Source of the DNA: Polyangiales bacterium
Lineage (GTDB): Bacteria; Myxococcota_A; Polyangia; Polyangiales; Polyangiaceae
DNA length: 64,000 nucleotides
Assembly (NCBI GenBank): GCA_038231275.1
Contig: JBBRLQ010000029.1
Location: forward strand, 37,675 to 101,674
Direction: 5' to 3'
In this document: positions 859 through 60,361 of the stretch, in pieces
Numbering within the stretch: the stretch's first letter is position 1
How the letters are laid out: every line of letters starts with the position of its first letter
Made by a program: the position numbers and the translations under genes
The notes under the pieces: model-generated
The model's input: the letters and a program-made list of their open reading frames with translations, nothing else
What the model was told of the DNA's origin: nothing
Databases searched by the model: none

Positions 859-1596
859 TCAGCCCATTCCGCCGGCCGCGCGGTCGATCACCCATGTGAT
901 CGCGCCGCGCACGTCGCGCACGAGGCGCGCGGGCGTCTCATTCTTGCTGCCCGACACCTGCCAGACGCGCTCGAGCGGTTCGTGCTTCGCCTTTCCGAGT
1001 GCCATCACCATGACGTGCCGCGCGGCCTCGATGACCGGCGCCGTCAGCGTGATGCGCGGCTCGAGGCCGGCGTGCGCGGGGACGGAGACGACGAGGCGAT
1101 CGGTGATCTCGACCTCCGGCCTGCCCGGAAACAGCGACGCGGTGTGCCCATCGTCGCCCACGCCGAGGACGATGAGATCGAACGCCGGCGGCGCCCCGGT
1201 GCGGACCGTCTTCCGGACGAGCGCTTCGTAGTCGCGCGCGGCCTGCTCGAGATCGCTCGCCTCGCCGTGCATGCGAAAGACGTGGTCGTCGGCGATCTTC
1301 GCCGGCTCGAGCAGCGCCTCGCGCACCATGCGGAAGTTCGAGCGATCGCTCGTCGGAGGTACCGCCCGCTCGTCGACGAAGAAGACGTCGACGCGCGACC
1401 AGTCGATCTTCGGATCTTTTGCGATCATCGCGTAGGCGGGGCGCGGCGTATTTCCCCCCGAGAGAGCGATCGCCGCGCGTCCGCGGGCGCTCACGGCGTC
1501 GCGGATCGATCGCGCCATTCGCGCGCCCGCCTCCTTGTACGCTTGCTCCGCGTCGGGCGTGGCGATCAGGATGCCAGGGACCACCTTCGTCGTCAT
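859..1596 (-). CDS. pgl: 6-phosphogluconolactonase
   Basis: ALSGGNTP, FFVDERAVP, LGVGDDGHTASLFPG, RITLT motifs; ATGA overlap with opcA stop. Confidence 0.95.
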   Translation of the reverse strand: MTTKVVPGILIATPDAEQAYKEAGARMARSIRDAVSARGRAAIALSGGNTPRPAYAMIAKDPKIDWSRVDVFFVDERAVPPTSDRSNFRMVREALLEPAKIADDHVFRMHGEASDLEQAARDYEALVRKTVRTGAPPAFDLIVLGVGDDGHTASLFPGRPEVEITDRLVVSVPAHAGLEPRITLTAPVIEAARHVMVMALGKAKHEPLERVWQVSGSKNETPARLVRDVRGAITWVIDRAAGGMG

Positions 1597-2744
1597 GTGC
1601 AGACCACCCCGTCTTCGAACACTTCTTCGGCGAACACGACCGACTCGGTGAGGGCAGGGTCCTCGGTCGGACGGTGCAGCGTGCGCTCGAGCACCATCGC
1701 TCCCTTGTTGGCGCTCAGGCGCACGCGCTGCTCGATCGTCTGCTTGCCGGCGACGTCGAGGCGCCAGACGAGGACGTCGGCGTCGGGGGTCGAGCCCGCG
1801 AGACCGCTCCCGAGCTCGCGCTCGATCGTGCCCTTCAACCGCACGCCGCCGGCCTCCGCTTCGATCGTGACGCCGGCCAGCGTCGTCGGCGCGACCTCGG
1901 CGGGCCGCTGCACGGTGCCGAGGTGCAGGCCAACGATGCCGCCGTCGGGGCGCTTGAAGCGGAGCGCGCCGCCGAGACGCGACGTCTTCCACCCGAGGCG
2001 CGTCGCCATCCACCCGAGCAAGAGAGCGCCCTCGGAACCCAGGCGCGTCCCTGGCTCCGAGGCCTGGCGCAAGCTGACGCGGGTCACGGCGTGCGCGTGG
2101 GGGCAGAGGCTCGTGTCGTCGAAGAAGCGCGCGCAGAGCTCCTGCCACGTGGTCAGGCGCGTCCACGCCAGATCCGCGATGTGGGGACGAGTCACGTCCT
2201 GCCGCGCCCAGCGCGCCAGGTGGAGGAGGCTCGTGAGCGACGTGTAGTCGGTGTCGAGGACGATGCGCTGCGCGTTCATGGCGAGCGAGAGGAACACCGG
2301 ATCGTCGACGTGCACGCGCCCCAACCACACGAGCGTCGTCGGGATTTCGGGGACGCAAAGCGCTTCGACGGCGCTGCCGACGCGGTCGCACACGCCGCCC
2401 AGCGCCACCAGGCGCACGCGCTCGGAGCAGACGATCTGCCCTGCCTCGCCTTTCACGCACACCGCGGTCGTGTCGGCCTCGAGGGCGTTGGCCTGCGCGT
2501 CGGGATCGAGCGCGACGATGATCGCCCGCGCGGGGATTCCGCGGGTCACGTCGTCGACCACGGGCGTGTAGAGCGCGGCGATCTCGCGCTCGCCGGCGAC
2601 GACGACGAGGTTCATGGTGCACGCGCGCGCCTTGGGCGCCTCGCTGGGGCTCGTGGGCGGCGACCAGATCTCGAGCAGCTCCTTCTCGATGCGGGTGAGG
2701 ACCGCGCTCGCCGGCGCCGGCGGCGAGATGCTCGTCGCGCTCAC
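1593..2744 (-). CDS. opcA: Glucose-6-phosphate dehydrogenase assembly protein OpcA
   Basis: RACTMNLVV, ICSERVRL, DLAWTRLTTWQEL motifs; GTGA overlap with zwf stop; lies between zwf and pgl. Confidence 0.88.
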   Translation of the reverse strand: MSATSISPPAPASAVLTRIEKELLEIWSPPTSPSEAPKARACTMNLVVVAGEREIAALYTPVVDDVTRGIPARAIIVALDPDAQANALEADTTAVCVKGEAGQIVCSERVRLVALGGVCDRVGSAVEALCVPEIPTTLVWLGRVHVDDPVFLSLAMNAQRIVLDTDYTSLTSLLHLARWARQDVTRPHIADLAWTRLTTWQELCARFFDDTSLCPHAHAVTRVSLRQASEPGTRLGSEGALLLGWMATRLGWKTSRLGGALRFKRPDGGIVGLHLGTVQRPAEVAPTTLAGVTIEAEAGGVRLKGTIERELGSGLAGSTPDADVLVWRLDVAGKQTIEQRVRLSANKGAMVLERTLHRPTEDPALTESVVFAEEVFEDGVVCT

Positions 2745-9629: not shown

Positions 9630-12600
9630 ATGGGCTGCACGCGAATCGACGAAGATCTCCTCGGTGTTCTCGACGGCACCGCGCACCCCGACCTGATCGC
9701 CCACGTCGCCGAGTGCGACGCCTGCCGCGACGCCCGGCACGAGGCCGGCCGCATCGGGCGCGAGATCGCCCGCGCCGGATCGGACTACACGCCGCTCCCC
9801 GACGTCGCCCGACGCATCGAGGCCCGCCTCGGTGAGGCGCACGGACGCGAGAGCCACGCGCGCCTCCGCACCGTTACCAAGGCACCCGACGTCGTCATCA
9901 CGCCCGCCGCCGGTCCGGCGCGCACGCTCCACTGGAAATCCGCGATCCTCGGCTTCGCGGCGGTCCTCGGCATCTCCGCGGGCGTCACCGTCGGCGTGAA
10001 AGCGGCGGACTGGCAGAAGAGCCCTCGCGCCGCCGCGTCACGCGCGTGGCACGGCAAGGTTGGCAAGGTCACGCGCAGCGGCGCAGACAAGACCGGCGGG
10101 CTCACGGCGACGCTCCTGAACGGCAAGCAGGCGCCGCTCGTCGAAGGGGCAGAAATCAAGGCCGGCTGGCACGTCGTCACCGATCCCCGCACGCGCGCGC
10201 GCATCGATCTCGACGACGGCACGCAGATCATCCTCGATCGCGCGACCGATCTCGAGATCGGCCAGGCGCCGCGCACCGCGTCGCTGAAGGACGGATCGAT
10301 CATCGCCGACGTCGCCCACCTCGACGGCGCGCCGAGCGCCAAGCTGATCGTGCCCGTGGGCAGCGTGAACGTCCTCGGCACCAAGCTGACCGTCACGGCG
10401 ACCGACGATCGCGCGAGCGTCGAGGTCTTGCGCGGCGTCGTCGAGGTGACCGACACGGCCGGCGCCGTGGCGCAGGTGACCGCAGGCCAAGAGGCCCAGC
10501 TCGCCCGCGGCGCGCGCACCGACGTGACGCCCGCCAACGATCTCGCGCAGCGCGTGGCGTTCGAGGGCGAGCTCGGCAGCGGGCTCGGCCACAACGAGGA
10601 CACGGACGGCTCGGTGAGCGGCCTCGGCGAGCTCCGAGCGAAGAAGCCGGGCAGCACGACGGAGAAAGACCGCGCAGTTCGCCTGACCAGCCACTCGGCC
10701 AAAATCCGCGTCGTCGGCAACGTCGCGCGCACTGAGGTGGACGAAGTCTTCACGAACGACACCGACGACGTGCTCGAGGGCATCTACCGCTTCCCGCTGC
10801 CCCCCGGCGCGCAGATCGAGCGGCTCGCGCTGGAGGTCGACGGCAAGCTCCTCGACGGCGAGTTCGTCGACAAGGCCAAGGCCGCGGCGATTTGGCGCGG
10901 CGCGATCCAGAACGCTGCCCCGAAGGCGCCGCGCCCGCGCGAGGAGATCATCTGGGTGCCTGGCCCGTGGCACGATCCGGCGCTGCTCGAGTGGCAGCGC
11001 GGCGGACGCTTCGAGCTGCGGATCTTCCCGATCCCCAAGCACGGGTCGCGCCGCATCGTGATCGCGTACACCGAGACGGTCGCGCCGGTCGCCGGCGTGC
11101 GGCGGTACACGTATCCGCTGCCGCAGTCGACGGCGAGCGACATGAAGATCGACACCTTCGCGCTCGACGTCCAGGTGACGGGCGCCGACCCCAAGGCCGG
11201 CGTGAAGGTGCGAGGTTACGAGCTCGCGCGCTCACAAGGCGGCAGCGACAGCGCGCCCGGGACCGAGCGCTTCGCGCAGACGATGACCGGATTCACGCCG
11301 TCGGGCGATCTCACGCTCGAATACGCGCTGGCCGATCGGGCCACCGACGCCAGCGCCTACGGCTTCGCGGACGGCACCGCGAAGACGAAGGAAGACGGCT
11401 TCGTGGCCATCGCGCTGCGGCCCAAGCTCCCGAAGTGGGCGGACACGAGGCCGCGCGATCAGGTCATCGTCGTCGACTCCGGGCGCTCGATGTTCGGCGA
11501 GCGCTTCAAGCGCGCGCGGCAGCTCGCGGTTCAGGTGATCCAGGAGATGGACCGGCGCGATCGCGTCACGGTCCTCGCGTGCGACGTGACGTGCCGCGCG
11601 ATGCCGGGCGGCTTCAAGGCGCCGGGCTCGGGCGCCGCGCACGATGCGGATGCGTTCATGGCGGGCGTGACGCCGGACGGCGCGAGCGACGTCGTAGGCG
11701 CGGTGCGAGCGGCGGCCGCGTCGACGGGACACGACGCGGCGCGCGACCTTCGCGTGGTCCTCGTCTCCTCGGGGCTCGCGTCTGCGGGCTACCGGCGCGC
11801 CTCTGCGATCGCTCCCGAGGTCAGCGAGGCCCTGCCCGACGGCCGCGCCGAAGTCGTCACCGTGCCCATCGGTGCGGACGCCGATCTCGTCATGCTCGAG
11901 GAGATCGCGCGCGGGGGAGGCGGCGTGCTGGTGCCGTACCAGCCCGGCGAGCGGCTCGAGACCGCTGCGCTCGACGTCTTGAACGCCACGTACGGGACGA
12001 CGCTCCGCGACGTCACGCTGGAGCTCCCTGCGGGCCTCCACGACTCCGCGCCGACCCTGCTCGCGCCCATCCGCGCCGGAGAAGAGCGCATCGTGGTCGC
12101 GCGTGTGACCGGCGATCGGGTGCAAGGCGACGCGACCCTCAAGGGCAAGGTCGGCGGGGAGCCGTTCGAGGCGAAATACCCGCTCGACGTGCGCGTCGTA
12201 GGCGACGCGGGCAACGCGTTCGTGCCGCGCCTCTACGCAGCCGCCCGCATCGCCGACAAGGAGCGCGACGGCGGCGAGGGCGCTCGCGCGGAGCTCGTGA
12301 CCCTCTCGCGCCGCCACGCCGTTCCCAGCCGCTTCACGTCGCTCCTCGTGCTCGAGAGCGAGGCGATGTTCCAAGCGTTCGGGATCGACCGCGCCACGCG
12401 CGCACAGACATGGACCGGCGATCTGGCCGCGACCGGCACCGACGTCGCGACCCTCGCCCCCGCAACGCCGGCCGACGAGGCGCAGGCGCTGAACAGCGGC
12501 GGGCTTGGGCTCGGTCACGGTTACGGCGTCGGCGCAAGCAAAGGCGCGGGCGCAGGCGGCTCGGCACCTGCCGGCGATCTCTCGGATCCACTTCGTTCGG

Positions 12601-16489: not shown

Positions 16490-16568
16490 TCTTGACGCGG
16501 CAGCTGTTAGACTGCCGACCAGTTTGCCTAAACCCGGGACTGACCGAAGACGAGTGTGAGAGAGAGGA

Positions 16569-19500
16569 ATGTCCCAAGGGGATAAACCGCCCGAGTCGCG
16601 GAAGTCGATGCCGCCGAGCGAGATCGGATCGCTCCTGGCGAACCGCTACGAGGTCGTGCGCGAGCTCGGTCGTGGCGGCATGGGCATCGTGTACCTCTGC
16701 AAGGACATCGTCACCGGCGAGCGCGTCGCGCTGAAGCGCCTGCGCACGCCGGAAGAGGGCAAAGGCTCGCAGCGCGCGGAGGAGAGCTGGTGGTTCCACC
16801 AGGAGGCGCGCGCCGTCGCGTCGCTCGATCATCCGGCGATCGTTCGCGCTCGCGATTTCGGATCGCTCGCCGACGGCAGTCCGTACCTGGTGATGGACGC
16901 GCTGCCAGGGCGCAGCGTGCACGAGTGGATGCACACGACGACGATCCCGTGGTCCGTCGTCTGGGCCATGGTCGATCAGGTGCTCGCGGGGCTCGCGCAC
17001 GCGCACGCGCGGGGGATCATCCATGGAGATCTCAAGCCGTCGAACGTGATGCTCGATCTCGCGTCGACGGGACGCGGGCCGCGCGCGTACGTGCTCGATC
17101 TCGGGCTCGCGTGGTTGCGTCAGTCGCGGCACGATCCGCGGCTCGACGGCTCGCCCGAACCGGAGCTCGCGACGCACTCGGGCGCCGGCACCGTCGGGTG
17201 GGTCGCCCCGGAGCAGATCCGCAAGGCGGCGCCTCACGTCGGCCCGCCGACGGACATGTACGCGCTCGGCTGCATCGTGTACCGCGTGCTCACCGGCAAG
17301 GAGGTCTTCGAGGGCAACGCGCAGGAGGTCCTCCGCGCGCACAAGAGGACTCCCGTGCCGCCGCTTAAGCTCGCGGATGGCGTGCCGCCGGGCGTCGGGC
17401 CGTACGTGCAGAAGCTCCTCGCGAAGAAGCCGTGGCAGCGCTTCGAGCTCGCCGCCGACGCGCGACGCGCCTGGGGGCAGCTGCGACCGACCCACGCGCC
17501 CACGCTCGAAGAGACGATGGCCTCGACTCCGCTCCCGATGCCGGGCGTGCCGATGCCCGCGTCGTCGAGCCCGGCGATGGGTCGCGCCGTCGCGCAAGCG
17601 CGCTCGCTCGCGCCGGGGCTCCTCTCCATGCGCCCGTCGCCGACCATCGCTCGCGACTCCGAGCGTCGCGAGCTGATGAGCGTCGTCGACCAGATCAACA
17701 GCGGCGTGGGGCCGCCGCAGCGCATGATCGCGGTGCTCGGAGAGGCAGGCGTCGGCAAGAGCCACCTCGCCCAGTGGTTCTGCGAGCAGGTGCACGAGAC
17801 CGGTCGCATGTGGCCGCTCCGCGCGCGCTACGGCCGCATCCCGACGCCGCTCGACGGCGTGACCGGCGCGGTCAACAACTTCTTCGGCCTCCAAGGCGCC
17901 GACAGAGCCCTCGTGGAGCAGACCTTTCTCAATCGATGGGAGGTCGCCAAGGACGACGAGGACGGCCTCACGTGGGTCGCCGCGATCGCCGAGTGGCTTC
18001 GGCCCACGCCGCCGGGGACGGTGGCTCCGCTAGGCCCCACCGGGAAGCGCTTCGTCCTCGACACGGCCGAGCTCCGTCAGGTCGTCGTCCGAAAAATTTT
18101 GGAGCGCATCGCGCACGATCGGCCGGTGCTCATCTGGTTCGACGATCTGCACCTCGCGAGCCCCAACACGTTCGAGATGCTCGCGAGCCTGCGCCGCGAC
18201 GCGCCGCGCCTGCGCATCCTGATCCTCGCGACGGCGCGCAGCGAGGCGCTCGAGACCGATCTCGACGCCGCGCTGCGCATGGAGTCGACGCGCGCCGACT
18301 GGAACGGGCGCGTCCTCGAGATGAAACCGCTCTCGAGCGAAGAGACCGAAGCGCTCTTGCGCGCGACGCTGCCGCTCCATGACGACGCCGTGGTCGGCGC
18401 GACCGCGCAGTCGCGCGGCAACCCGCTCTTCGCGCTGCAGCTCCTTCACGCGTGGGCGGGTGGCGGCTACCTCACGCTCGACAAGGGGCGCTACCGCGTG
18501 CCCGACGAGGCACTGCAAGGACGCGCCATCACCACCTCGGAGCTGTGGGACGAGCGCCTGCGCGCAGTGCCGACCGATCTGCGCCTCGCGGCCTACGCCG
18601 CCGCGGCGCTGGGAGAGGACATTCGCGGCGTCGTCCTGAAGGCGCTGTGCGCGGCGCTCGGCCTGGACGCGCGCGACGCGATGGTCGCCCTGACACGCGC
18701 GCAGATCCTCCTCGCGAGCGGCAACGATCAGTTCCGCTGGGCGCACGCGCTCCTCCAAGAGCACCTGCTCGCGCGCGTCCACGAACGGAGCGACGCGCCG
18801 GCCGTCTTCCGCCTCGCCGCCAACGCGCTCGCGAAGCACCCCGCCGTCGGCTCGCGCCGCATCATGAAGCACCGCGTGACGAACCTGCTCAAGGCGGGCG
18901 ACGACGATCTGGCGGCGCAGCTCATGTTCCGGCACATCGATGGGTCGTGGCGGCGCGGTCGCGACACCGCAGCGACGCTGCGCGATCTCGAGCTCCTCGA
19001 CGGCCACGTCTCCGGCGCGGCCGCCGCCGAGTACTCGTACTGGCGCGCCGAAGCGATGCGCCACACCGGCCGCCTCGAGGAGGCGAAGGAGAACGCCGAG
19101 CTCGCGCGGAAGGCGTTCGAGCACAACGGCGATCGAACCCGGGAGGCGCAGGCGCTTCGGCTTCTCGGCCACCTGATGAGCGACGTGGGCCAGCCCGCGC
19201 AGGGGCGCGTCCTCGTCGAAAAGGCGCTCGGCCGGTTCGAGGAGATCGGCGACGAAGCCGGCCGCGCGCAGACGCTCGTCGTCCTCGGCGAGATCGACTA
19301 CTTGCTCGGCGAGCACTCGCGCGCGCGTCAGGTCCTCAACGACGCGCGCGCACGCTGCACCATCGTCGGCGACGCGCTCGGCCGCGCCCAGACGCAGATC
19401 CTCCTGGCGATGATCGAGACCGCCGTCGGCGGCTACCAGCGCGCGCGCAGCCTGCTGATGGAGGGCCGCGCCGAGTTCGACAGCATCGGCTACCGCCTCG

Positions 19501-20117
19501 GCATCGCGCAGTGCGACGTCGTGCTCGGCCACGCCGATCACCGCGCCGGCGAGATGGACGCGGCGAGGCAGCGCGCGCTCACCGCCCGCTCGGCCTTCCG
19601 CGAGCTCGTGAACCCTCGCGGTGAGGCGGCGTGCGAGCGTCTCCTCGGCATGATCGCCATCGACACCGGCGACTACGCGGCCGGCGAGGCGCACGCCCAG
19701 ATCGCGCGCAAGCTCTACGAGCGCCTCCAAGACCCTTGGGGCGATGTCGAGGCGCGCCTCCTCATCGCCCAGGTCGCGCTCGCGCGGGACGACGACGGCG
19801 CGCGCGAGATCCTCTCGGAGTGCGATCGCATCCAGCTCGACGAGGCGGAGCCCCGCCAGCACCGCCACCTGACCCTCGCGTGGCTCGCCCAGAAGGACTC
19901 GCGCTGGGGCGACGCGGCGGGCGAGATCGAGAAGGCGCGCGTGGCGTTCGGCGACCGGGCCCGCTGCGGCGATCACACCCCGCAGCTCCTCCAGCGCTTC
20001 GCGCGCATGGTCTGGCTCGGCCCCGCGCTGCCGAAGATCGACGCGTGGCTGGGGGTCATCGAGGGGGTGAACCCCGACACCCCCATTTCTTCGCAGTGGC
20101 CGCTCAGCAAAAGGTGA
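16569..20117 (+). CDS. Hanks Ser/Thr kinase-STAND-type P-loop ATPase-TPR protein
   Basis: LGRGGMGIVY, VALK, HGDLKPSN, DLG, APE; Walker A GEAGVGKS, Walker B LIWFDDLH, GNPLF; C-terminal TPR-like repeats. Confidence 0.92.
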   Translation: MSQGDKPPESRKSMPPSEIGSLLANRYEVVRELGRGGMGIVYLCKDIVTGERVALKRLRTPEEGKGSQRAEESWWFHQEARAVASLDHPAIVRARDFGSLADGSPYLVMDALPGRSVHEWMHTTTIPWSVVWAMVDQVLAGLAHAHARGIIHGDLKPSNVMLDLASTGRGPRAYVLDLGLAWLRQSRHDPRLDGSPEPELATHSGAGTVGWVAPEQIRKAAPHVGPPTDMYALGCIVYRVLTGKEVFEGNAQEVLRAHKRTPVPPLKLADGVPPGVGPYVQKLLAKKPWQRFELAADARRAWGQLRPTHAPTLEETMASTPLPMPGVPMPASSSPAMGRAVAQARSLAPGLLSMRPSPTIARDSERRELMSVVDQINSGVGPPQRMIAVLGEAGVGKSHLAQWFCEQVHETGRMWPLRARYGRIPTPLDGVTGAVNNFFGLQGADRALVEQTFLNRWEVAKDDEDGLTWVAAIAEWLRPTPPGTVAPLGPTGKRFVLDTAELRQVVVRKILERIAHDRPVLIWFDDLHLASPNTFEMLASLRRDAPRLRILILATARSEALETDLDAALRMESTRADWNGRVLEMKPLSSEETEALLRATLPLHDDAVVGATAQSRGNPLFALQLLHAWAGGGYLTLDKGRYRVPDEALQGRAITTSELWDERLRAVPTDLRLAAYAAAALGEDIRGVVLKALCAALGLDARDAMVALTRAQILLASGNDQFRWAHALLQEHLLARVHERSDAPAVFRLAANALAKHPAVGSRRIMKHRVTNLLKAGDDDLAAQLMFRHIDGSWRRGRDTAATLRDLELLDGHVSGAAAAEYSYWRAEAMRHTGRLEEAKENAELARKAFEHNGDRTREAQALRLLGHLMSDVGQPAQGRVLVEKALGRFEEIGDEAGRAQTLVVLGEIDYLLGEHSRARQVLNDARARCTIVGDALGRAQTQILLAMIETAVGGYQRARSLLMEGRAEFDSIGYRLGIAQCDVVLGHADHRAGEMDAARQRALTARSAFRELVNPRGEAACERLLGMIAIDTGDYAAGEAHAQIARKLYERLQDPWGDVEARLLIAQVALARDDDGAREILSECDRIQLDEAEPRQHRHLTLAWLAQKDSRWGDAAGEIEKARVAFGDRARCGDHTPQLLQRFARMVWLGPALPKIDAWLGVIEGVNPDTPISSQWPLSKR

Positions 20118-33978: not shown

Positions 33979-34410
33979 ATGGCCACCTTCGTCTACCGCA
34001 CCCGCCGCCAAGAGATCCGTCGCGCTCATGTCATGGAGTGCCACGTCGTGCGCGATCGCGACTTCCGTGAGGTCGGGGGGAGGGTGCTCGACCTGTCGCC
34101 CAACGGGATGCTCGTCGGCGTCGACGACGCGGTCCAAGTTGGAGAGACGGTCCTCGTCAGCTTCCGCGCGACGCCGCTCAACTTGTGGTTCGACACCGAC
34201 GCGACCGTCACGCGCCTGCTCCGCGGACGGCGGCCCGGAGATCCTTCGGGGATGGCGCTCGGGCTGGTGTTCACGTCGCTCGATCCGGTCGCGCGCCTCA
34301 TCCTGCGTGGATTTTTGCGTCACGTGCCGCCGCCGCTCCCGCGACGCGACCTGGTGATCGATTACGCGCGCACGGTGGGGAGAATCCTATCCATGCCCGC
34401 CGCCGCGTAG
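33979..34410 (+). CDS. PilZ domain protein (paralog)
   Basis: RQEIRR and DLSPNG; same layout as upstream gene. Confidence 0.85.
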   Translation: MATFVYRTRRQEIRRAHVMECHVVRDRDFREVGGRVLDLSPNGMLVGVDDAVQVGETVLVSFRATPLNLWFDTDATVTRLLRGRRPGDPSGMALGLVFTSLDPVARLILRGFLRHVPPPLPRRDLVIDYARTVGRILSMPAAA

Positions 34411-34466
34411 CGCGCGCGGCGTCACGTTCCCGGGTGATTTCGCGCGGGGTGGCCCGCGCCGGTCGA

Positions 34467-34482
34467 CGGCACGCCCGCTGCT
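34467..34482 (+). promoter_or_regulatory. sigma54-like -24/-12 promoter
   Basis: CGGCACGCCCGCTGCT, 17 nt before TTG start. Confidence 0.55.
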
Positions 34483-34498
34483 ACTGGAGATCCGGGTC

Positions 34499-35377
34499 TT
34501 GCGCCCGCTCCACCCGAGTTGGATTGTTCTCGCAGCGCCGTCTTTGGCGCTCGCCGTCGCATGCGGTGCCGCGACGCCGCAGGTCGAGCAAGAGGGGCCG
34601 CGCGTCACCGCCAACCTCGGCGCGAGCGGCGGCGCGAAGGACGGCGCGGGCGGCGGCAGCGGAGCGGGGAGCGGCCGCCTCGCGCGCGCCTCGTCGAGCC
34701 GCAAGACGCTCGACACCGGCTGCCCGTCGGAGATGGCGCCGATCGATCAACGCTCGGGCCGCTTCTGCATCGATCGCTGGGAGGCCGGCCTCGTCGACGT
34801 TCTCGGCGCCGGCGACGAACGCCCGCACTCTCCGTACTACCCCGTCGGCACCAGCGTCGTCCGCGCGGTGAGTCGACCGGGCGTATTTCCCCAAGGGTAC
34901 GTCAGCGCGGTCGAGGCGCAGCAGGCGTGCGTCCGCTCCGGCAAGCGATTGTGTCGCCCGTCGGAATGGCGCAAGGCCTGCCTCGGCCCCGACACGCTGG
35001 TCTACGGCTACGGGAGCCGCGCCGAGCCGCGCCGCTGCAACGATCACGGACGGAGCCCCATCCTCGCGACGTTCGGCCCGCAGGCGTTCGCGCCGAGCCG
35101 CCACGCGTGGGACTTCATGAACACGCCCTCGCTGAACCAGCTCGACGGCACGCTCGCGAAGACGGGCGATCACCCCGGCTGCACGAACGGCTACGGCGTC
35201 TACGACATGGTCGGCAACCTCCACGAGTGGGTCGCCGATCCGAAGGGCACGTTTTACGGCGGCTACTACCAGGACACGCGGCAGCACGGCGAGGGGTGCA
35301 CGTACACCACCGAGGCGCACGCGGCCTCGTACCACGACTACTCGACAGGCTTCCGCTGCTGCGCCGACACGCACTGA
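34499..35377 (+). CDS. FGE-sulfatase domain lipoprotein
   Basis: AVAC lipobox; FCIDRWE, GKRLCRPSEW, YDMVGNLHEW, GFRCCAD. Confidence 0.88.
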   Translation: MRPLHPSWIVLAAPSLALAVACGAATPQVEQEGPRVTANLGASGGAKDGAGGGSGAGSGRLARASSSRKTLDTGCPSEMAPIDQRSGRFCIDRWEAGLVDVLGAGDERPHSPYYPVGTSVVRAVSRPGVFPQGYVSAVEAQQACVRSGKRLCRPSEWRKACLGPDTLVYGYGSRAEPRRCNDHGRSPILATFGPQAFAPSRHAWDFMNTPSLNQLDGTLAKTGDHPGCTNGYGVYDMVGNLHEWVADPKGTFYGGYYQDTRQHGEGCTYTTEAHAASYHDYSTGFRCCADTH

Positions 35378-40258: not shown

Positions 40259-41356
40259 GTGATCTGGGTGCGCCGTGCCTTCGTCGTCGGGTCCGCGGCC
40301 CTCGCCGCCGCCGCTCTCCTGGCGTGCCCGCGGCGCGGCGGAAGGATCCCTTCGCGCGCGGACGCCGACGCTGACGCCGCGGAGACCGCCACCCCACGCG
40401 ATGCGAGCGCGATCGACGTCGCGCCAATCGACGCCGGACCGCCGCCCATCGACGCCTCGGACGACGCGCGCGATCTCCACAAAGCCACGACCGCGGGCCT
40501 GCTCGATCTCCTTCCGTACGCCGCCGAAACCAAGTACATGGGCGCCGTCCTCGGCCCCGTCGTCGGCAAGATGAGCCAGGGAAACCCGGCGATCGCCCAG
40601 CACGCGGTCTCGAAGAAGGCGTGCCTCGAGGGCCTCCGCGACATCGTCATCCAGACGGGCGAGCAGCGGCGCATCTGCGGCGCCGACAACATGGTCCCCA
40701 TCTACAAGGGCGGCGACATCAGCAAGGCGAAGACGTGCATCGACGTCTTCGAGTTCCCGAATCAACCCTGCGAGCTCCCGTTCGTGTGGGTGCCGCCGTC
40801 GATGGCCGAGCGCGTGTGCGAGCTGGGCGGCAAGCGCCTCTGCGCGCAGGAGGAATGGAACCTCGCCTGCAAGGGAGATCCCGAGGGCGGCAAGGACAGC
40901 ATCTACGCGTACGGCGAAGATCTGGACATGACGATCTGCAACACCAACAAGCCTCACCCGATGGGCCCCGACGGCCGCAACTGGATCTGCTGGGTGAAGG
41001 ACGCGGAGACCGCGTTCAGGACGTGCGAGACCGACACCGAGCCGGCCGGGGCCTTCCCGCGGTGCCGCTCGCGCTTCGGCGTCTTCGATCAGCACGGCAA
41101 CGTCGCCGAGATCATGACCCGCAAGGCCGGCGACGTCGTCTACACACAACTGAAGGGGAGCGCGTTCTTCTACGTGGACGTCGCGCGCAAGCACAACGTC
41201 CCGCACCCCGCCGGCGCGCTACACGACACGTACCCCGATCACTGCAACTACGATCCGCGGTGGCACGTCGAGGTCCTCGGCGAGGCGCTCCACACGAACT
41301 ACCACCTCGGTTTTCGCTGCTGCAAAACCGTCACGGATGAGCGCAGGGATCGCTAG
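40259..41356 (+). CDS. FGE-sulfatase-like lipoprotein
   Basis: LLAC lipobox; CIDVFEFPN, GKRLCAQEEW, DQHGNVAE, GFRCCK. Confidence 0.85.
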   Translation: MIWVRRAFVVGSAALAAAALLACPRRGGRIPSRADADADAAETATPRDASAIDVAPIDAGPPPIDASDDARDLHKATTAGLLDLLPYAAETKYMGAVLGPVVGKMSQGNPAIAQHAVSKKACLEGLRDIVIQTGEQRRICGADNMVPIYKGGDISKAKTCIDVFEFPNQPCELPFVWVPPSMAERVCELGGKRLCAQEEWNLACKGDPEGGKDSIYAYGEDLDMTICNTNKPHPMGPDGRNWICWVKDAETAFRTCETDTEPAGAFPRCRSRFGVFDQHGNVAEIMTRKAGDVVYTQLKGSAFFYVDVARKHNVPHPAGALHDTYPDHCNYDPRWHVEVLGEALHTNYHLGFRCCKTVTDERRDR

Positions 41357-57342: not shown

Positions 57343-58071
57343 ATGAGGCGACTCCGCGGTCGCGCCGCCCTCGCGTGCGCGCTCTTCGTGCTCGTCGTGG
57401 GCTGTCGGAAAAAAGAGAAGAGGCCGCTCGAAATCGAGGCGGGTCCGCCGCAGGCTGAAGCGACCGCCGACGTCGACGCGAAGGAGACCGTCCAGGTCAT
57501 CGTGTCGGTCTACCCCGTCACGTGCGACGCGAGCGCGGCGGCGCGCGGATGGACGGCGTGCCGTGAGGCGAGCGGCGGCTATGGCAAGGTCTACTCCTGC
57601 GCGGAGAAGGCGCTCCGCGAGTCACGTGGGGCGCTGGCGAGCCTTCGTCCGTCGACCCCGCGCCACGCCGCGTGCGCCGACCAGGTCGACAAGGCCGCGG
57701 TCACGATGCTCAACACCACGCCGCAGTTCTTCTCGGACGTGACCACGTGGCTGCAGGAGAACCACGACGCGCTCGCGAAGGCGCTGGAGACGATGCCGCT
57801 CGGCGAGGCGTGCCGCGCGTCGAAGGATCTCTGCGCGCGCGAGCCGCACGACTACGACGACGTGTACAAGGCCATGCGGATGCACTCGCTCGACATGATC
57901 GAGTGCACGACGACGCTCTTCCGGTGCGGGCAGAAGGACGCGATGGATTGCTGGCTCGGCAACGTCGTGCCGCGCCTCGGCGTCGCGTGCGCAGGAACGG
58001 CGAACCGCACCGGCGCGACGCCCGACGATCTCCTCTACGTGCGCGAGACGGGCACGCCGATCGCGCGCTGA
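57343..58071 (+). CDS. Cys-rich lipoprotein
   Basis: VVGC lipobox; about 10 Cys in mature part. Confidence 0.75.
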   Translation: MRRLRGRAALACALFVLVVGCRKKEKRPLEIEAGPPQAEATADVDAKETVQVIVSVYPVTCDASAAARGWTACREASGGYGKVYSCAEKALRESRGALASLRPSTPRHAACADQVDKAAVTMLNTTPQFFSDVTTWLQENHDALAKALETMPLGEACRASKDLCAREPHDYDDVYKAMRMHSLDMIECTTTLFRCGQKDAMDCWLGNVVPRLGVACAGTANRTGATPDDLLYVRETGTPIAR

Positions 58072-58078
58072 CGCGGCA

Positions 58079-58861
58079 TCAGAAGGCGACGCCGGCGCCC
58101 GCCGTGAGCGCGCGCTCGCCGGCGAACGCCCACTCGACCGAGACGTCAATCGGAGCGAGCGCGAGGACCACGCCGAGCGCGGGTTGGTAGTGGAATTTGT
58201 CATTGCCGGTGAGCGCCTGGCCACGCTGTGTCCACAAGACCGGACCGCCGAAGATGCGGCCCGCGACGTACGGCGTCACGGGGCCGAAGGTCTTGCCGAG
58301 CGTCAGGCCGCCGCGCACGTCATAAGCGGTGAAGCGCGCGGACTCGCCACGCGGCGACGCCGTGCGCGCGGCCGATGCGCCGGCGCTGATGCTGCCGAGG
58401 ACGAACGGCCAGGCGCCCTTCTCGTCGACGAGCCGATGCGCGTACGCGCCAAAGAAGAGCCACCCGGGACCCATCGCGTGCGACTCGTCGGTGTCGAGGC
58501 TGCCGTCGGCGATGCCCCCCGCACCGAGCTGGGCGACGCCGCGCGCCCCGATCGGCATCTCGCCCGACACGACGACCGCGTGGCGCGAGAAGTCGGCTCT
58601 CACGCCACCATCGAACGCCAGGACCGTGCGCGCGTAGCTATAGGCGACCGCGACGCGCGCGATCGTCTTCGCGCCTCCGTGGCCTTCGTCACCGCCGCAC
58701 GTCGTCACTCCCGTCGGACCGACGGGCGGGGAGAGGCCTCAGGCGAACGCCTCGCGAGGCCGAGCGATCCCGAAGGCGAGGAGCGACGCGAACGACGCGA
58801 CGGCGAGGCGCGCGACGGAACGCGCCGGAGGGTTATGAGCTGCCAATGACCGTGAGTGCAT
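58079..58861 (-). CDS. Putative selenocysteine-containing outer-membrane beta-barrel protein (TGA 58739-58741 = Sec41)
   Basis: Signal peptide ...ASLLAFGIARPREAFA, in-frame TGA, then GLSPPVGPTGVTTC continuing into ORF 58079-58708; amphipathic strands and C-terminal ...AGAGVAF. Confidence 0.7.
58710..58726 (-). promoter_or_regulatory. Candidate bacterial SECIS hairpin
   Basis: mRNA CCCGUC-GGUCC-GACGGG starting 12 nt 3' of the UGA; GGUC at apex as in E. coli fdhF SECIS. Confidence 0.65.
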
Positions 58862-58942
58862 CGCGCGCAGGAGTCTAACACTCAGATATCGTTCAAAAAC
58901 ATTTCTTGTTGCACATTGTCGTACCTCGGACCACATTACCCC

Positions 58943-60361
58943 ATGTTCCGACGCGCCTTCCTCCACGCCCCCCTCCTCTTGATCCTGGGCCTCGCCGCCG
59001 CGTGCAGCGCCGCCACGGAAAACGCGTCGTCCGACGACTCCGATCTCACCGGCGGTGATACCGCGACGGTCGATCTCGCGACGCAGGCGACGACGTCGCT
59101 CTACGTGGCGATCAGCGCGAAGACCTCGTCGAAGGTGACCGACGCCCTGGTCGCGGCGGCTGCGCGCGGCGTGCCCACGCGCGCGATCGTCGTCGACGGG
59201 AGCTTCGACGCGACGTGGACGCTCCAGCAGCACCTTGAGTCGAGCGGCGTGAACGTCGACGTCCGCGCCGCCTCTCCGGCGCCGACGGTCCTCGCGATCG
59301 CGGACGGCACGGCACTCGTCGTGACCGGCAAGACGGTCAAGCGCGAGACCGCGAGCGCCGTGGTCAGCGGCTTCTCGAAGAAGTTCGACGACGCGCTCGG
59401 CGACGGCAGCGCGGCGCGCCCCGGCGCCTTCATCGCGGCGGAGACCGTGAAGGTCCTCCCGATGCCCGATTCCGGCGACGATCGTCTCGCCGAGCTCATG
59501 GCCACCGCGCAGCACTCGATCGACCTGTCGATTTACGAGCTGCAGGAGCGCCGAATGGTCCACGCGCTCCTCGACGCGGCCGCGCGCGGCGTCACCGTGC
59601 GCGTAATGCTCGAGCCTCGCACCGTCGGCGCCGCGAACTTCGATCCGGTCAGCAAGGAGCTCACCGCCGGCGGCGTGAAGGTCACCCCGACGCCGCCCGC
59701 CTTCGACACGCACCGTAACGTCGACCACGCGAAGTTCTGCATCCTGGACGACAAGGAGCTCCTCTACGGGACCGGCAACATGGTCAAGAGCAGCATCGGC
59801 AGCGTTAGCCTCGCGCCGTACCAGCTCCGCGATTTCTGGATCGAGGACGGGCGCAAGGCGAGCCTCACCGCCGCGCGCGCGCTCTTCGATGCGGATCTCG
59901 CGCGGAAGGACACGACCGGCATGGACATGAGCGGGTTCGTGCTCTCGCCCGACAACGCCGACGGCAAGATCACCGCGCTCGTCGACGGCGCCACCAAACG
60001 CCTCCTCGTCTACAACCAGTCGCTCAACGACGCGGATCTCATCGCGCGCCTCATCAAGGCGCAATCGCGCGGCGTCGACGTGCACGTGCTCCTCGGTTAC
60101 CAGCCGGGCTTCGGCGGCGCGCCACCCGCAAACGACGACACGATCAACAAGCTGAAGGCCGGCGGCGTGAAGGCCGCGTACCTCAAGGCGCACTACCTCC
60201 ATGCCAAGGCGATCGTCGCCGACGACAAGGTGTACCTCGGCTCGCAGAACTTCACGAACGGTGGCCTTCGCGCCAACCGCGAGCTCGGCGAGATTTTTGA
60301 CGACGCCACGCTCGTGAAGACGGTCGTGACGACGTTCCAGAAGGACGAGTCCGCGCAGTAG
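58943..60361 (+). CDS. Phospholipase D superfamily lipoprotein
   Basis: HAKFCILD and HAKAIVAD HKD motifs, GSQN..NRE; AAAC lipobox; extra degenerate N-terminal PLD-like domain. Confidence 0.9.
   Translation: MFRRAFLHAPLLLILGLAAACSAATENASSDDSDLTGGDTATVDLATQATTSLYVAISAKTSSKVTDALVAAAARGVPTRAIVVDGSFDATWTLQQHLESSGVNVDVRAASPAPTVLAIADGTALVVTGKTVKRETASAVVSGFSKKFDDALGDGSAARPGAFIAAETVKVLPMPDSGDDRLAELMATAQHSIDLSIYELQERRMVHALLDAAARGVTVRVMLEPRTVGAANFDPVSKELTAGGVKVTPTPPAFDTHRNVDHAKFCILDDKELLYGTGNMVKSSIGSVSLAPYQLRDFWIEDGRKASLTAARALFDADLARKDTTGMDMSGFVLSPDNADGKITALVDGATKRLLVYNQSLNDADLIARLIKAQSRGVDVHVLLGYQPGFGGAPPANDDTINKLKAGGVKAAYLKAHYLHAKAIVADDKVYLGSQNFTNGGLRANRELGEIFDDATLVKTVVTTFQKDESAQ

Follow-up and report, generated by a model that had tools for sequence, protein, structure and literature searches.

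A probable selenocysteine at the mature N-terminus of an uncatalogued myxobacterial outer-membrane barrel protein

Selenoproteins of the bacterial envelope and the barrel gene

Bacterial selenoproteins are made by decoding an in-frame UGA as selenocysteine (Sec), which depends on a selenocysteine insertion sequence (SECIS) downstream of that codon. Catalogued selenoproteins mostly use Sec in redox-active motifs (PMC13188914). Table 1 of the same source lists 119 prokaryotic selenoprotein families, each linked to a domain model; just two of them belong to the outer membrane, the GSU2204/MtrB-PioB family (NF041027) and a TonB-dependent receptor with an FCYXU motif (NF049945). Here we describe a gene on the minus strand (58861-58079) of a 64,000-nt stretch of DNA from a Polyangiales bacterium (contig JBBRLQ010000029.1, positions 37,675 to 101,674; the whole stretch is called the window below), which most likely encodes an uncatalogued myxobacterial outer-membrane barrel protein with Sec as the first residue after signal-peptide removal. 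With a probability of about 0.8, this is one gene whose UGA is read as Sec by means of a SelB-type SECIS, and whose product is exported, cut after A-F-A, and inserted as an outer-membrane barrel with its N-terminal Sec on a flexible, presumably periplasmic arm. A Sec-UGA placed directly after the signal-peptide cleavage site of an outer-membrane barrel was first proposed from the letters alone (the sequence-only reading), and that interpretation is now supported by TGA and Cys homologs, a downstream hairpin, the predicted barrel fold, and the absence of the family from the catalogues.

The closest described systems resemble this gene in part. Exported oxidoreductase selenoproteins (DsbA-like, DsbG-like, thiol:disulfide interchange protein, and the UGC-containing TlpA family) share with it an extracytoplasmic location, a Cys homolog at the Sec position, a partner Cys, and a UGA with a SECIS in the coding region, but they have a thioredoxin fold and carry tight UxxC or UGC motifs inside that fold (PMC13188914). 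In the barrel family, by contrast, Sec would be the first mature residue on a disordered arm, the partner Cys lies 8-15 residues away, the body is a membrane beta-barrel, and Pfam and NCBIfam give no thioredoxin-type match. The two catalogued outer-membrane families are likewise beta-barrels, with a Sec predicted by computation only (PMC13188914, PMC12013277). They are nevertheless different and much larger, with NCBIfam models of their own that did not match five members of the barrel family at E<=1. Going by the motif column of the catalogue (CxxU for the receptor, none given for GSU2204), and by description rather than alignment, their Sec is not at the mature N-terminus.

A wider comparison agrees with the earlier statement that the gene falls outside the usual selenoprotein families. 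At E<=1, Pfam returned no family for the read-through protein or for the 209-aa open reading frame (ORF) called at this locus, NCBIfam returned none for the five members, and no entry in Table 1 of the 119-family catalogue is alike, although the supplementary tables of the sources may still list one (PMC13188914). The main texts of BSepDB and deep-Sep (PMC12013277) contain no mention of an outer membrane, a barrel, a signal peptide, or any word beginning with Myxococc-. In the literature searched, nothing joins selenocysteine, selenoprotein, and Myxococcota, and the publications on selenoproteins, outer membranes, beta-barrels, and selenocysteine include none on this barrel family, judged by titles and abstract openings. 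The decoding mechanism is already known; what is new, as far as checked, is the protein family, Sec at a mature N-terminus, and the apparent predominance of Sec over Cys in an outer-membrane barrel family. If confirmed, the bacterial selenoproteome would gain a large family (505 cluster representatives at 50% identity) from a phylum, Myxococcota, that the selenoprotein literature hardly discusses.

The reading frame, its TGA codon, and the homologous loci

An ATG at 58861-58859 opens a frame that reaches a TGA stop at 58081-58079 and ends in Phe. Codons 1-40 encode a hydrophobic core and the C-terminal end R-P-R-E-A-F-A, codon 41 is an in-frame TGA (58741-58739), and past it the frame reads G-L-S-P-P-V-G-P-T-G-V-T-T-C and stays open until 58079. 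Every sequence statement made earlier about this gene was confirmed on the minus strand, namely that it is split, that 40 codons lead to A-F-A, that TGA follows at 58739-58741, that the frame continues and ends in Phe, and that a Cys lies at +15 counting from the TGA codon (Cys55, 58699-58697). The mechanical ORF list gives just 58079-58708 here (209 aa, GTG start); gene callers routinely shorten such genes because the TGA is read as a stop. Most genes in the window, which is 69.2% G+C, use TGA as an ordinary stop, so there is no sign of a reassigned code. The features of the gene are as follows, L001 and L002 being the two homologous loci described below them.

58742..58861, minus strand: predicted signal peptide, codons 1-40, from ATG 58861-58859 to A-F-A, a signal peptidase I type AxA site
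Codon 6 of the signal peptide, minus strand: TTG, alternative start
58739..58741, minus strand: in-frame TGA, proposed selenocysteine codon, residue 41 and +1 of the mature protein; TGA in L001 and L002, Cys in 39 relatives
58710..58726, minus strand: SECIS-like hairpin on the P-V-G-P-T-G codons, nt 16-32 from the U of UGA; perfect 7-bp stem, loop G23-U24-C25 (58719-58717)
58697..58699, minus strand: codon of Cys55 (+15), nearly invariant second cysteine, shared by at least 90% of aligned rows; candidate resolving partner of Sec41
58661..58738, minus strand: flexible N-terminal arm rich in Gly, Asp, and Glu, residues 42-67; predicted local distance difference test (pLDDT) below 50 (AlphaFold2 model 1, residues 6-61; model 2, residues 14-59)
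58082..58660, minus strand: predicted beta-barrel domain, residues 68-260, with terminal Phe (AlphaFold2, DSSP, Foldseek)
58079..58081, minus strand: true stop codon TGA, the shared end point of all aligned relatives
58872..58880, minus strand: TGTTAGACT, proposed extended -10 box, present but unsupported (promoter scan 0 sites; not kept in L001)

A genome-contig search with an 11-sequence alignment found two homologous loci, L001 in a Myxococcales metagenome-assembled genome and L002 in a Polyangiaceae one, whose products are 85% and 49% identical in amino acids to the window protein downstream of the TGA. Both loci carry TGA at the aligned codon (L001 10031-10033, L002 223-225). In each, a GTG start opens an in-frame signal peptide, of 27 codons ending in AFA in L001 and of 25 codons ending in AYA in L002, directly before the TGA, and the two signal peptides differ in sequence from that of the window. 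The three loci thus show an in-frame UGA with coding conservation on both sides, signal-peptide character upstream and a conserved motif downstream. A hidden Markov model of the family, run against six-frame translations of the window, L001, and L002, found no paralogs beyond the three known genes.

Could the TGA be an accident, that is, a nonsense mutation or a miscalled base at codon 41 of a Cys gene? It lies one base from TGC and TGT, and both comparison loci come from metagenome-assembled genomes. Yet the same TGA stands in three independent assemblies at the protein identities given above, dozens more relatives have ORF calls that start just past the column, and the ratio of nonsynonymous to synonymous substitution rates (dN/dS) downstream of the TGA indicates purifying selection (0.22 against L001, where dS is 0.55, and 0.36 against L002). 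Since the TGA is conserved and the sequence past it is under purifying selection, a pseudogene, a sequencing error, or a strain-specific nonsense mutation, the case that the sequence-only reading had named as fatal to its own proposal, is excluded for practical purposes.

The family extends far beyond these loci. A word-indexed search found 47 relatives, and profile matching against 1.84 billion cluster representatives yielded 505 at E<=1e-3, the best 150 of which are listed individually; 304 of the 505 reach E<=1e-30. We compared the N-termini of 194 homolog sequences, sorted by regular expression and then by eye into approximate classes. Full-length forms make up 39 of the 194, with a signal peptide, AxA-Cys-Gly, a variable linker of 8-15 residues rich in Gly, Ser, and Pro, and a second Cys; two more (P0101 and P0163) have the same layout with Ser replacing the first Cys. 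Another 29 are called from an ATG, GTG, or TTG 2-4 residues past the column, begin x-x-P-V-G-P-T-G, and lack a signal peptide, and 43 begin within 6 residues of the second Cys, also without one. The remaining 81 start later, with no signal peptide among the N-termini listed, though not every one of the 81 was inspected; a few of these late starters (e.g. P0160 and P0139) resemble truncated Cys forms. At the aligned codon, therefore, homologs with DNA have TGA and full-length forms have Cys, with conservation on both sides, which is the pattern the sequence-only reading had looked to as its check.

One member was considered as a fusion protein and rejected: P0096 (485 aa) has a low-complexity tail of about 230 residues rich in Arg and Pro after the barrel, with no Pfam match; an overlooked stop codon or an error of frame in the source record probably accounts for the tail.

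This is a large family, found mostly in myxobacteria, and a signal peptide is missing from many, or even most, of its public ORF calls. Biologically, an outer-membrane barrel that lacks a signal peptide makes no sense, and a gene caller halted by an upstream stop codon would yield exactly such starts. The public call P0017 (source ncbi, 221 aa), which matches the L002 gene and starts at a GTG two codons past the TGA, is one example, and the lesson for annotation is that most public ORF calls of this family are N-terminally truncated, signal-less barrels.

These calls also bear on a different explanation, in which the TGA is a real stop that separates a 40-codon upstream ORF, perhaps a leader peptide, from a separate 209-aa protein starting at GTG 58708. 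The window ORF and most relatives are so called in public collections, and no Sec machinery is seen within the window. However, a product of 209 aa would lack a signal peptide despite being an outer-membrane barrel, the stretch between the TGA and the GTG encodes the most conserved N-terminal motif of the family in frame, and 39 relatives are continuous across this point, with Cys. Furthermore, the signal-peptide character of the upstream ORF recurs in all three loci, diverged as they are, and each time the ORF stops exactly at AxA. We therefore regard a real stop as very improbable. The barrel fold needs a signal peptide, which is present only upstream of the TGA, and this favours read-through of one gene.

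The hairpin downstream of the UGA and the peptide it encodes

A SECIS downstream of the UGA had been named as a requirement by the sequence-only reading, and a SECIS-like hairpin lies at nt 16-32 after the U of UGA (58726-58710), with a perfect stem of 7 bp, the loop G23-U24-C25, and a spacing of 19 nt. Its energy in a 42-nt context is -11.9 kcal/mol in both the window and L001. In L002 the upper 4 bp and the loop are kept, followed by a G-G mismatch and 5 further pairs (-14.7 kcal/mol), and a 15-nt core of the hairpin is invariant across the three loci. The published bacterial SECIS (bSECIS) model has a loop of 3-9 nt, a stem of 4-16 bp, a G in the first two loop positions, a spacing of 16-37 nt, and a minimum free energy (MFE) of at most -7.5, and the hairpin fits all four criteria of this model in all three loci (PMC13188914). 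It resembles in part the E. coli fdhF-type SECIS, described as occupying nt 15-31 with conserved loop bases G23 and U24 and a bulged U17, in that the stem-loop begins about 11-12 nt past the UGA and G23 and U24 are apical in all three loci (PMC8659212).

The segment that encodes this hairpin has hardly changed. The first 15 codons past the TGA are nucleotide-identical between the window and L001 despite the dS between them, and the first 17-codon segment, with 1 difference, is the minimum of 203 such segments (median 9). At the gene-wide rate of 0.31, the probability of 17 unchanged codons with the same amino acid is about 0.002. Synonymous change is therefore suppressed where the SECIS-like hairpin lies.

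The same constraint appears in the peptide. Among the 29 putative Sec forms, the six residues over the hairpin are P in 29, V in 28 (G in 1), G in 29, P in 25 (A in 2, T in 1, S in 1), T in 25 (A in 4), and G in 29. P-V-G-[PATS]-[TA]-G would correspond to CCN-GUC-GGU-NCG-RCG-GGN, i.e. only to changes that keep the stem; codon usage is deduced from the peptide for 26 forms, and the three DNA sequences agree. The fourth-position residues P, A, T, and S are exactly the NCG codon family and would change loop base 25 only, and the T or A in the fifth position, ACG or GCG, would give an A-U or G-U pair with U20. The family would in this way illustrate how a SECIS in a coding region can constrain the peptide that it encodes.

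Of the 29 putative Sec forms, 28 contain PVGxxG, against none of the 39 Cys forms. A raw Fisher test of the motif against a Sec-like start gives 3e-18, a value inflated by a tree made of two deep clades. We restricted a maximum-likelihood tree to the barrel domain and to 69 rows (37 Cys, 2 Ser, 29 putative Sec, and the window), omitting P0096 and P0122. Of its two clades, A contains 28 Sec-like rows along with 2 Ser and 2 Cys rows, and B contains 35 Cys rows along with 2 Sec-like ones; the split has a support of 96. Two features survive phylogenetic correction. First, barrel divergence is equal in the two groups (median identity 0.36 and 0.38), and the linker is fixed in the TGA clade only. 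Second, in the Cys forms nested in the Sec clade (P0144 and P0183) the otherwise invariant Val is changed, as expected because a SECIS is no longer needed in Cys forms. On the Ser side, P0101 retains the PVGPTG motif and sits in the TGA clade; its Ser might reflect a recent change from TGA to TCA, a variant without activity, or an error.

Conserved TGA followed by a hairpin would also fit a stimulator of read-through that does not involve selenium, in which a near-cognate tRNA (Trp, Cys, or Arg) reads the UGA at low efficiency, perhaps aided by the hairpin, and a full-length barrel is made without Sec. That Sec machinery is not seen within the window is a further point in its favour. On the other hand, the column is Cys in 39 full-length relatives, which is the classic Sec/Cys pairing, and the hairpin fits a SelB-type model in its spacing and its G-U loop bases. 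In addition, Sec use elsewhere in Myxococcota is documented in Anaeromyxobacter dehalogenans, with 11 selenoproteins (PMC1794560). Programmed read-through of this kind is improbable in our judgement, if slightly less so than a real stop.

Several observations weigh against Sec at this codon, and we gather them here. TGA was read directly in only three DNA sequences, and in the other approximately 70 relatives it is inferred from where the ORF calls start. The Ser in P0101 and P0163 is a minor point that weakens the idea of an indispensable Sec or Cys. The Sec-like and Cys forms fall mostly into two deep clades, so that the association with the motif amounts to 3 independent contrasts only; 2-3 of them run in the expected direction and 0 in the opposite one, and a sign test (p 0.25-0.5) is unable to reach significance with 3. 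The E. coli element has a bulged U17 that is missing here (PMC8659212), the stem being perfect in the window and L001 and having the G-G mismatch instead in L002. The loop measures 3 nt, or 5 nt should the closing G-C pair open. SelB specificity varies among bacteria, and the missing U17 is therefore not decisive.

The remaining points against concern the distinctness of the hairpin and the machinery. Equally good hairpins follow 21 of the 1223 TGA triplets in the window (1.7%, the chance rate), and local fold energies are not better than those of shuffled sequences (z -0.79, -0.40, -0.01, and -1.56 for 86-nt and 42-nt stretches). Thermodynamics alone proves nothing here because the DNA is 69% GC and the z-scores are like those of shuffles. 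The MFE structure of the 42-nt stretch in the window prefers another hairpin, itself unconserved in L002. Rfam found no SECIS or other family in the whole window at gathering scores or in 201 nt at E<=10, where the only matches were two at chance level (E 5.4 and 8.6). The GGT of the loop is only mildly unusual, at 6.8% of Gly codons in 14 window genes and 6 of 38 in the barrel gene. Finally, Pfam detected no selA, selB, or selD in the 38 ORFs of the 64-kb window, which counts for little in a large genome; no tRNA-Sec or other tRNA was found in the window, nor any tRNA in L001 and L002 (64 kb and 31 kb viewed); and Pfam on 10 ORFs of L002 showed no Sec machinery or other selenoprotein gene.

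Export, barrel fold, and the gene neighbourhood

Signal peptides were judged from sequence statistics, without SignalP. In 38 Cys-form relatives, position -1 is Ala in all 38, position -3 is Ala in 32, Ser in 3, Val in 2, and Gly in 1, and charged residues are frequent at position -2 (Arg 8, His 4, Glu 3, Asp 2, besides others). A lipobox has Leu, Val, or Ile at -3, a small uncharged residue at -2, and Gly, Ala, or Ser at -1 before the Cys. Processing of the Cys or Sec as a lipoprotein by signal peptidase II was rejected because of the Ala at -3 and the charged residues at -2 in these 38 forms. Since AxA is a signal peptidase I site and there is no lipobox, the mature chain should start with Cys or Sec.

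AlphaFold2 was run with 25 aligned sequences (model 1) and with 95 (model 2), giving mean pLDDT values of 79.5 and 83.4. Residues 68-260 form a barrel at a pLDDT of about 95-98 per 10-residue block in model 2, in which DSSP assigns 12 strand elements, a provisional strand number. In both runs, values below 50 mark the signal peptide and the arm as far as about residue 60. The top Foldseek matches in the PDB are outer-membrane barrels at a probability of 1.00, among them NalP (1uyn; E 1e-6, template modelling (TM) score 0.47), FapF, EstA, EspP, and OpcA, at identities of 8-13% that indicate fold class and not family. The earlier proposal of an outer-membrane barrel is thus upheld by a confident beta-barrel model, by these matches, and by the terminal Phe. 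The terminal residue is Phe, Leu, or Tyr in 24 aligned relatives, the Phe of the window protein being a beta-signal type aromatic. Conserved polar residues of the barrel (D181, R183, R202, D221, Q226, E243, and E249) hint at a specific interior. An ESM Atlas search with a natural Cys homolog (P0026) as the query returned Myxococcota clusters and generic outer-membrane barrel look-alikes.

The architecture is that of a small outer-membrane barrel, like the 12-stranded NalP, EstA, EspP, and FapF and the 10-stranded OpcA (TM 0.44-0.50 by query). In some of these barrels an N-terminal segment is associated with the pore, whereas the arm here is predicted to be disordered, with no pore helix. A translocator of the autotransporter or FapF type was considered and rejected, as there is no Pfam Autotransporter match and no passenger (the mature arm is about 26 residues), and the arm is predicted to be disordered.

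How, then, might the protein be made and what might it do? In the mechanism we propose, the UGA at codon 41 would be decoded as Sec, aided by the hairpin 16-32 nt downstream in the coding sequence. The 40-residue signal peptide would direct export and signal peptidase I would cut after A-F-A, so that the mature protein begins with Sec. Its flexible acidic and Gly-rich arm, about 26 residues long, would carry the conserved Cys at +15 and lead into an outer-membrane beta-barrel of approximately 190 residues; by the usual topology of such barrels the arm would lie in the periplasm. If Sec is indeed inserted, the chances are about even that Sec1 and Cys15 are a redox-active selenenylsulfide or selenol-thiol pair, or a carrier pair, on a swinging arm. 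Such an arm would act on a thiol, chalcogen, or metal substrate at the outer membrane, and a TlpA-like reductase in the periplasm might recycle the pair. This function is wholly inferred, which is a further point against the proposal as a whole.

The idea of a redox partner comes from L002, where the barrel gene is followed, after 260 nt and on the same strand, by a gene for a TlpA-like lipoprotein (1155-1712, plus strand). Its product has AhpC/TSA (4e-23) and Redoxin (4e-18) matches, a CxxC motif, and a lipobox-type signal, and it is a possible redox partner of the barrel protein; that such a neighbour occurs in one of the three loci only speaks against the link. SoxY, a soluble periplasmic sulfur carrier, has a Gly-flanked Cys at the C-terminus of a swinging arm. 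It offers a works-like analogy only, a reactive chalcogen residue that ends a flexible Gly-rich arm and could bear intermediates bound covalently; homology is not expected.

A less favoured view accepts Sec but denies it turnover chemistry, taking the Sec/Cys pair as structural (a selenenylsulfide or disulfide staple that closes a small N-terminal loop) or as a pair of metal ligands. The linker is short, 8-15 residues, and rich in Gly, Ser, and Pro in the Cys forms, the acidic and sometimes His-containing stretch after the second Cys in relatives would suit cation binding, and the arm is undocked in the AlphaFold models. With two Ser variants, an arm that is disordered, and a TlpA neighbour at one locus only, there is room for both the staple and the metal site. 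Against them, known selenoproteins mostly place Sec in redox-active motifs (PMC13188914), the retention of a costly Sec codon across a deep clade argues for reactivity, and a thioredoxin-fold protein with CxxC is encoded nearby in L002. We consider such a non-catalytic role unlikely, though far from negligible.

More speculative still, and somewhat less likely than that, is the view that this would be the first natural family whose mature chain starts in Sec, where the cut by signal peptidase would expose a free alpha-amine beside a selenol on a flexible periplasmic arm anchored by the outer-membrane barrel. Together with the Cys at +15, the arm might then work as a swinging carrier or catalyst through covalent Se-S, Se-Se, or Se-metal intermediates with a substrate at the outer membrane, in a family whose Sec forms would be at least as common as Cys forms and whose SECIS would have frozen a six-residue motif. 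If Sec is where we place it, it would occupy a previously undescribed position, the very N-terminus of a mature outer-membrane protein, and the role of a free N-terminal selenol at the periplasmic face of the outer membrane becomes a testable question. Such an arm would also represent a new kind of extracytoplasmic selenium chemistry in the mostly aerobic, soil-dwelling Myxococcota.

The barrel gene stands by itself in the window. A PLD-like lipoprotein gene (58856-60361) diverges from it, and the gene of an exported, Cys-rich protein (57343-58071, plus strand), which has a lipoprotein-like signal and matches no Pfam family, converges on it, the two stops being 7 nt apart. A counterpart of the Cys-rich protein occupies the same relative position in L001 (10740-11501, minus strand; 76% identity). 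The extended -10 box proposed earlier, TGTTAGACT at 58880-58872, is indeed present 10 nt before the ATG, but its promoter role did not hold up: a sigma-70 scan of 57950-59050 found 0 sites, and the element is unconserved in L001. A block further upstream is conserved instead, with about 55 nt (window about 58885-58945, L001 about 9835-9890) nearly identical in the intergenic DNA between the barrel gene and the divergent PLD-like gene, unlike the DNA nearer the barrel gene start, which has diverged. This block may be a shared regulatory or promoter region of the divergent pair. In L002, positions 1-85, directly upstream of the barrel gene, resemble the 3' portion of a tRNA gene whose variable arm is long; ARAGORN made no call there, presumably since the contig end cuts it.

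A scan for other TGA-bridged frames in the window gave 5 sites, which resemble antisense frames, and at its thresholds it missed the known site. Same-frame pairs of coding-like segments with high GC3 (G+C at third codon positions) lie on the plus strand at 32345-33490/33491-33961 and 61679-62215/62216-64000, each pair joined by a TGA, and at 52835-54202/54203-55558, joined by a TAG; they are probably neighbouring genes that share a frame. The window also encodes two FGE-sulfatase-domain proteins at most 6 kb apart (34358-35374 and 40259-41353, both plus strand), a Ser/Thr kinase-AAA-TPR protein (16560-20114), and VWA/VIT proteins, a content that is typical of myxobacteria and consistent with the taxonomy of the homologous loci.

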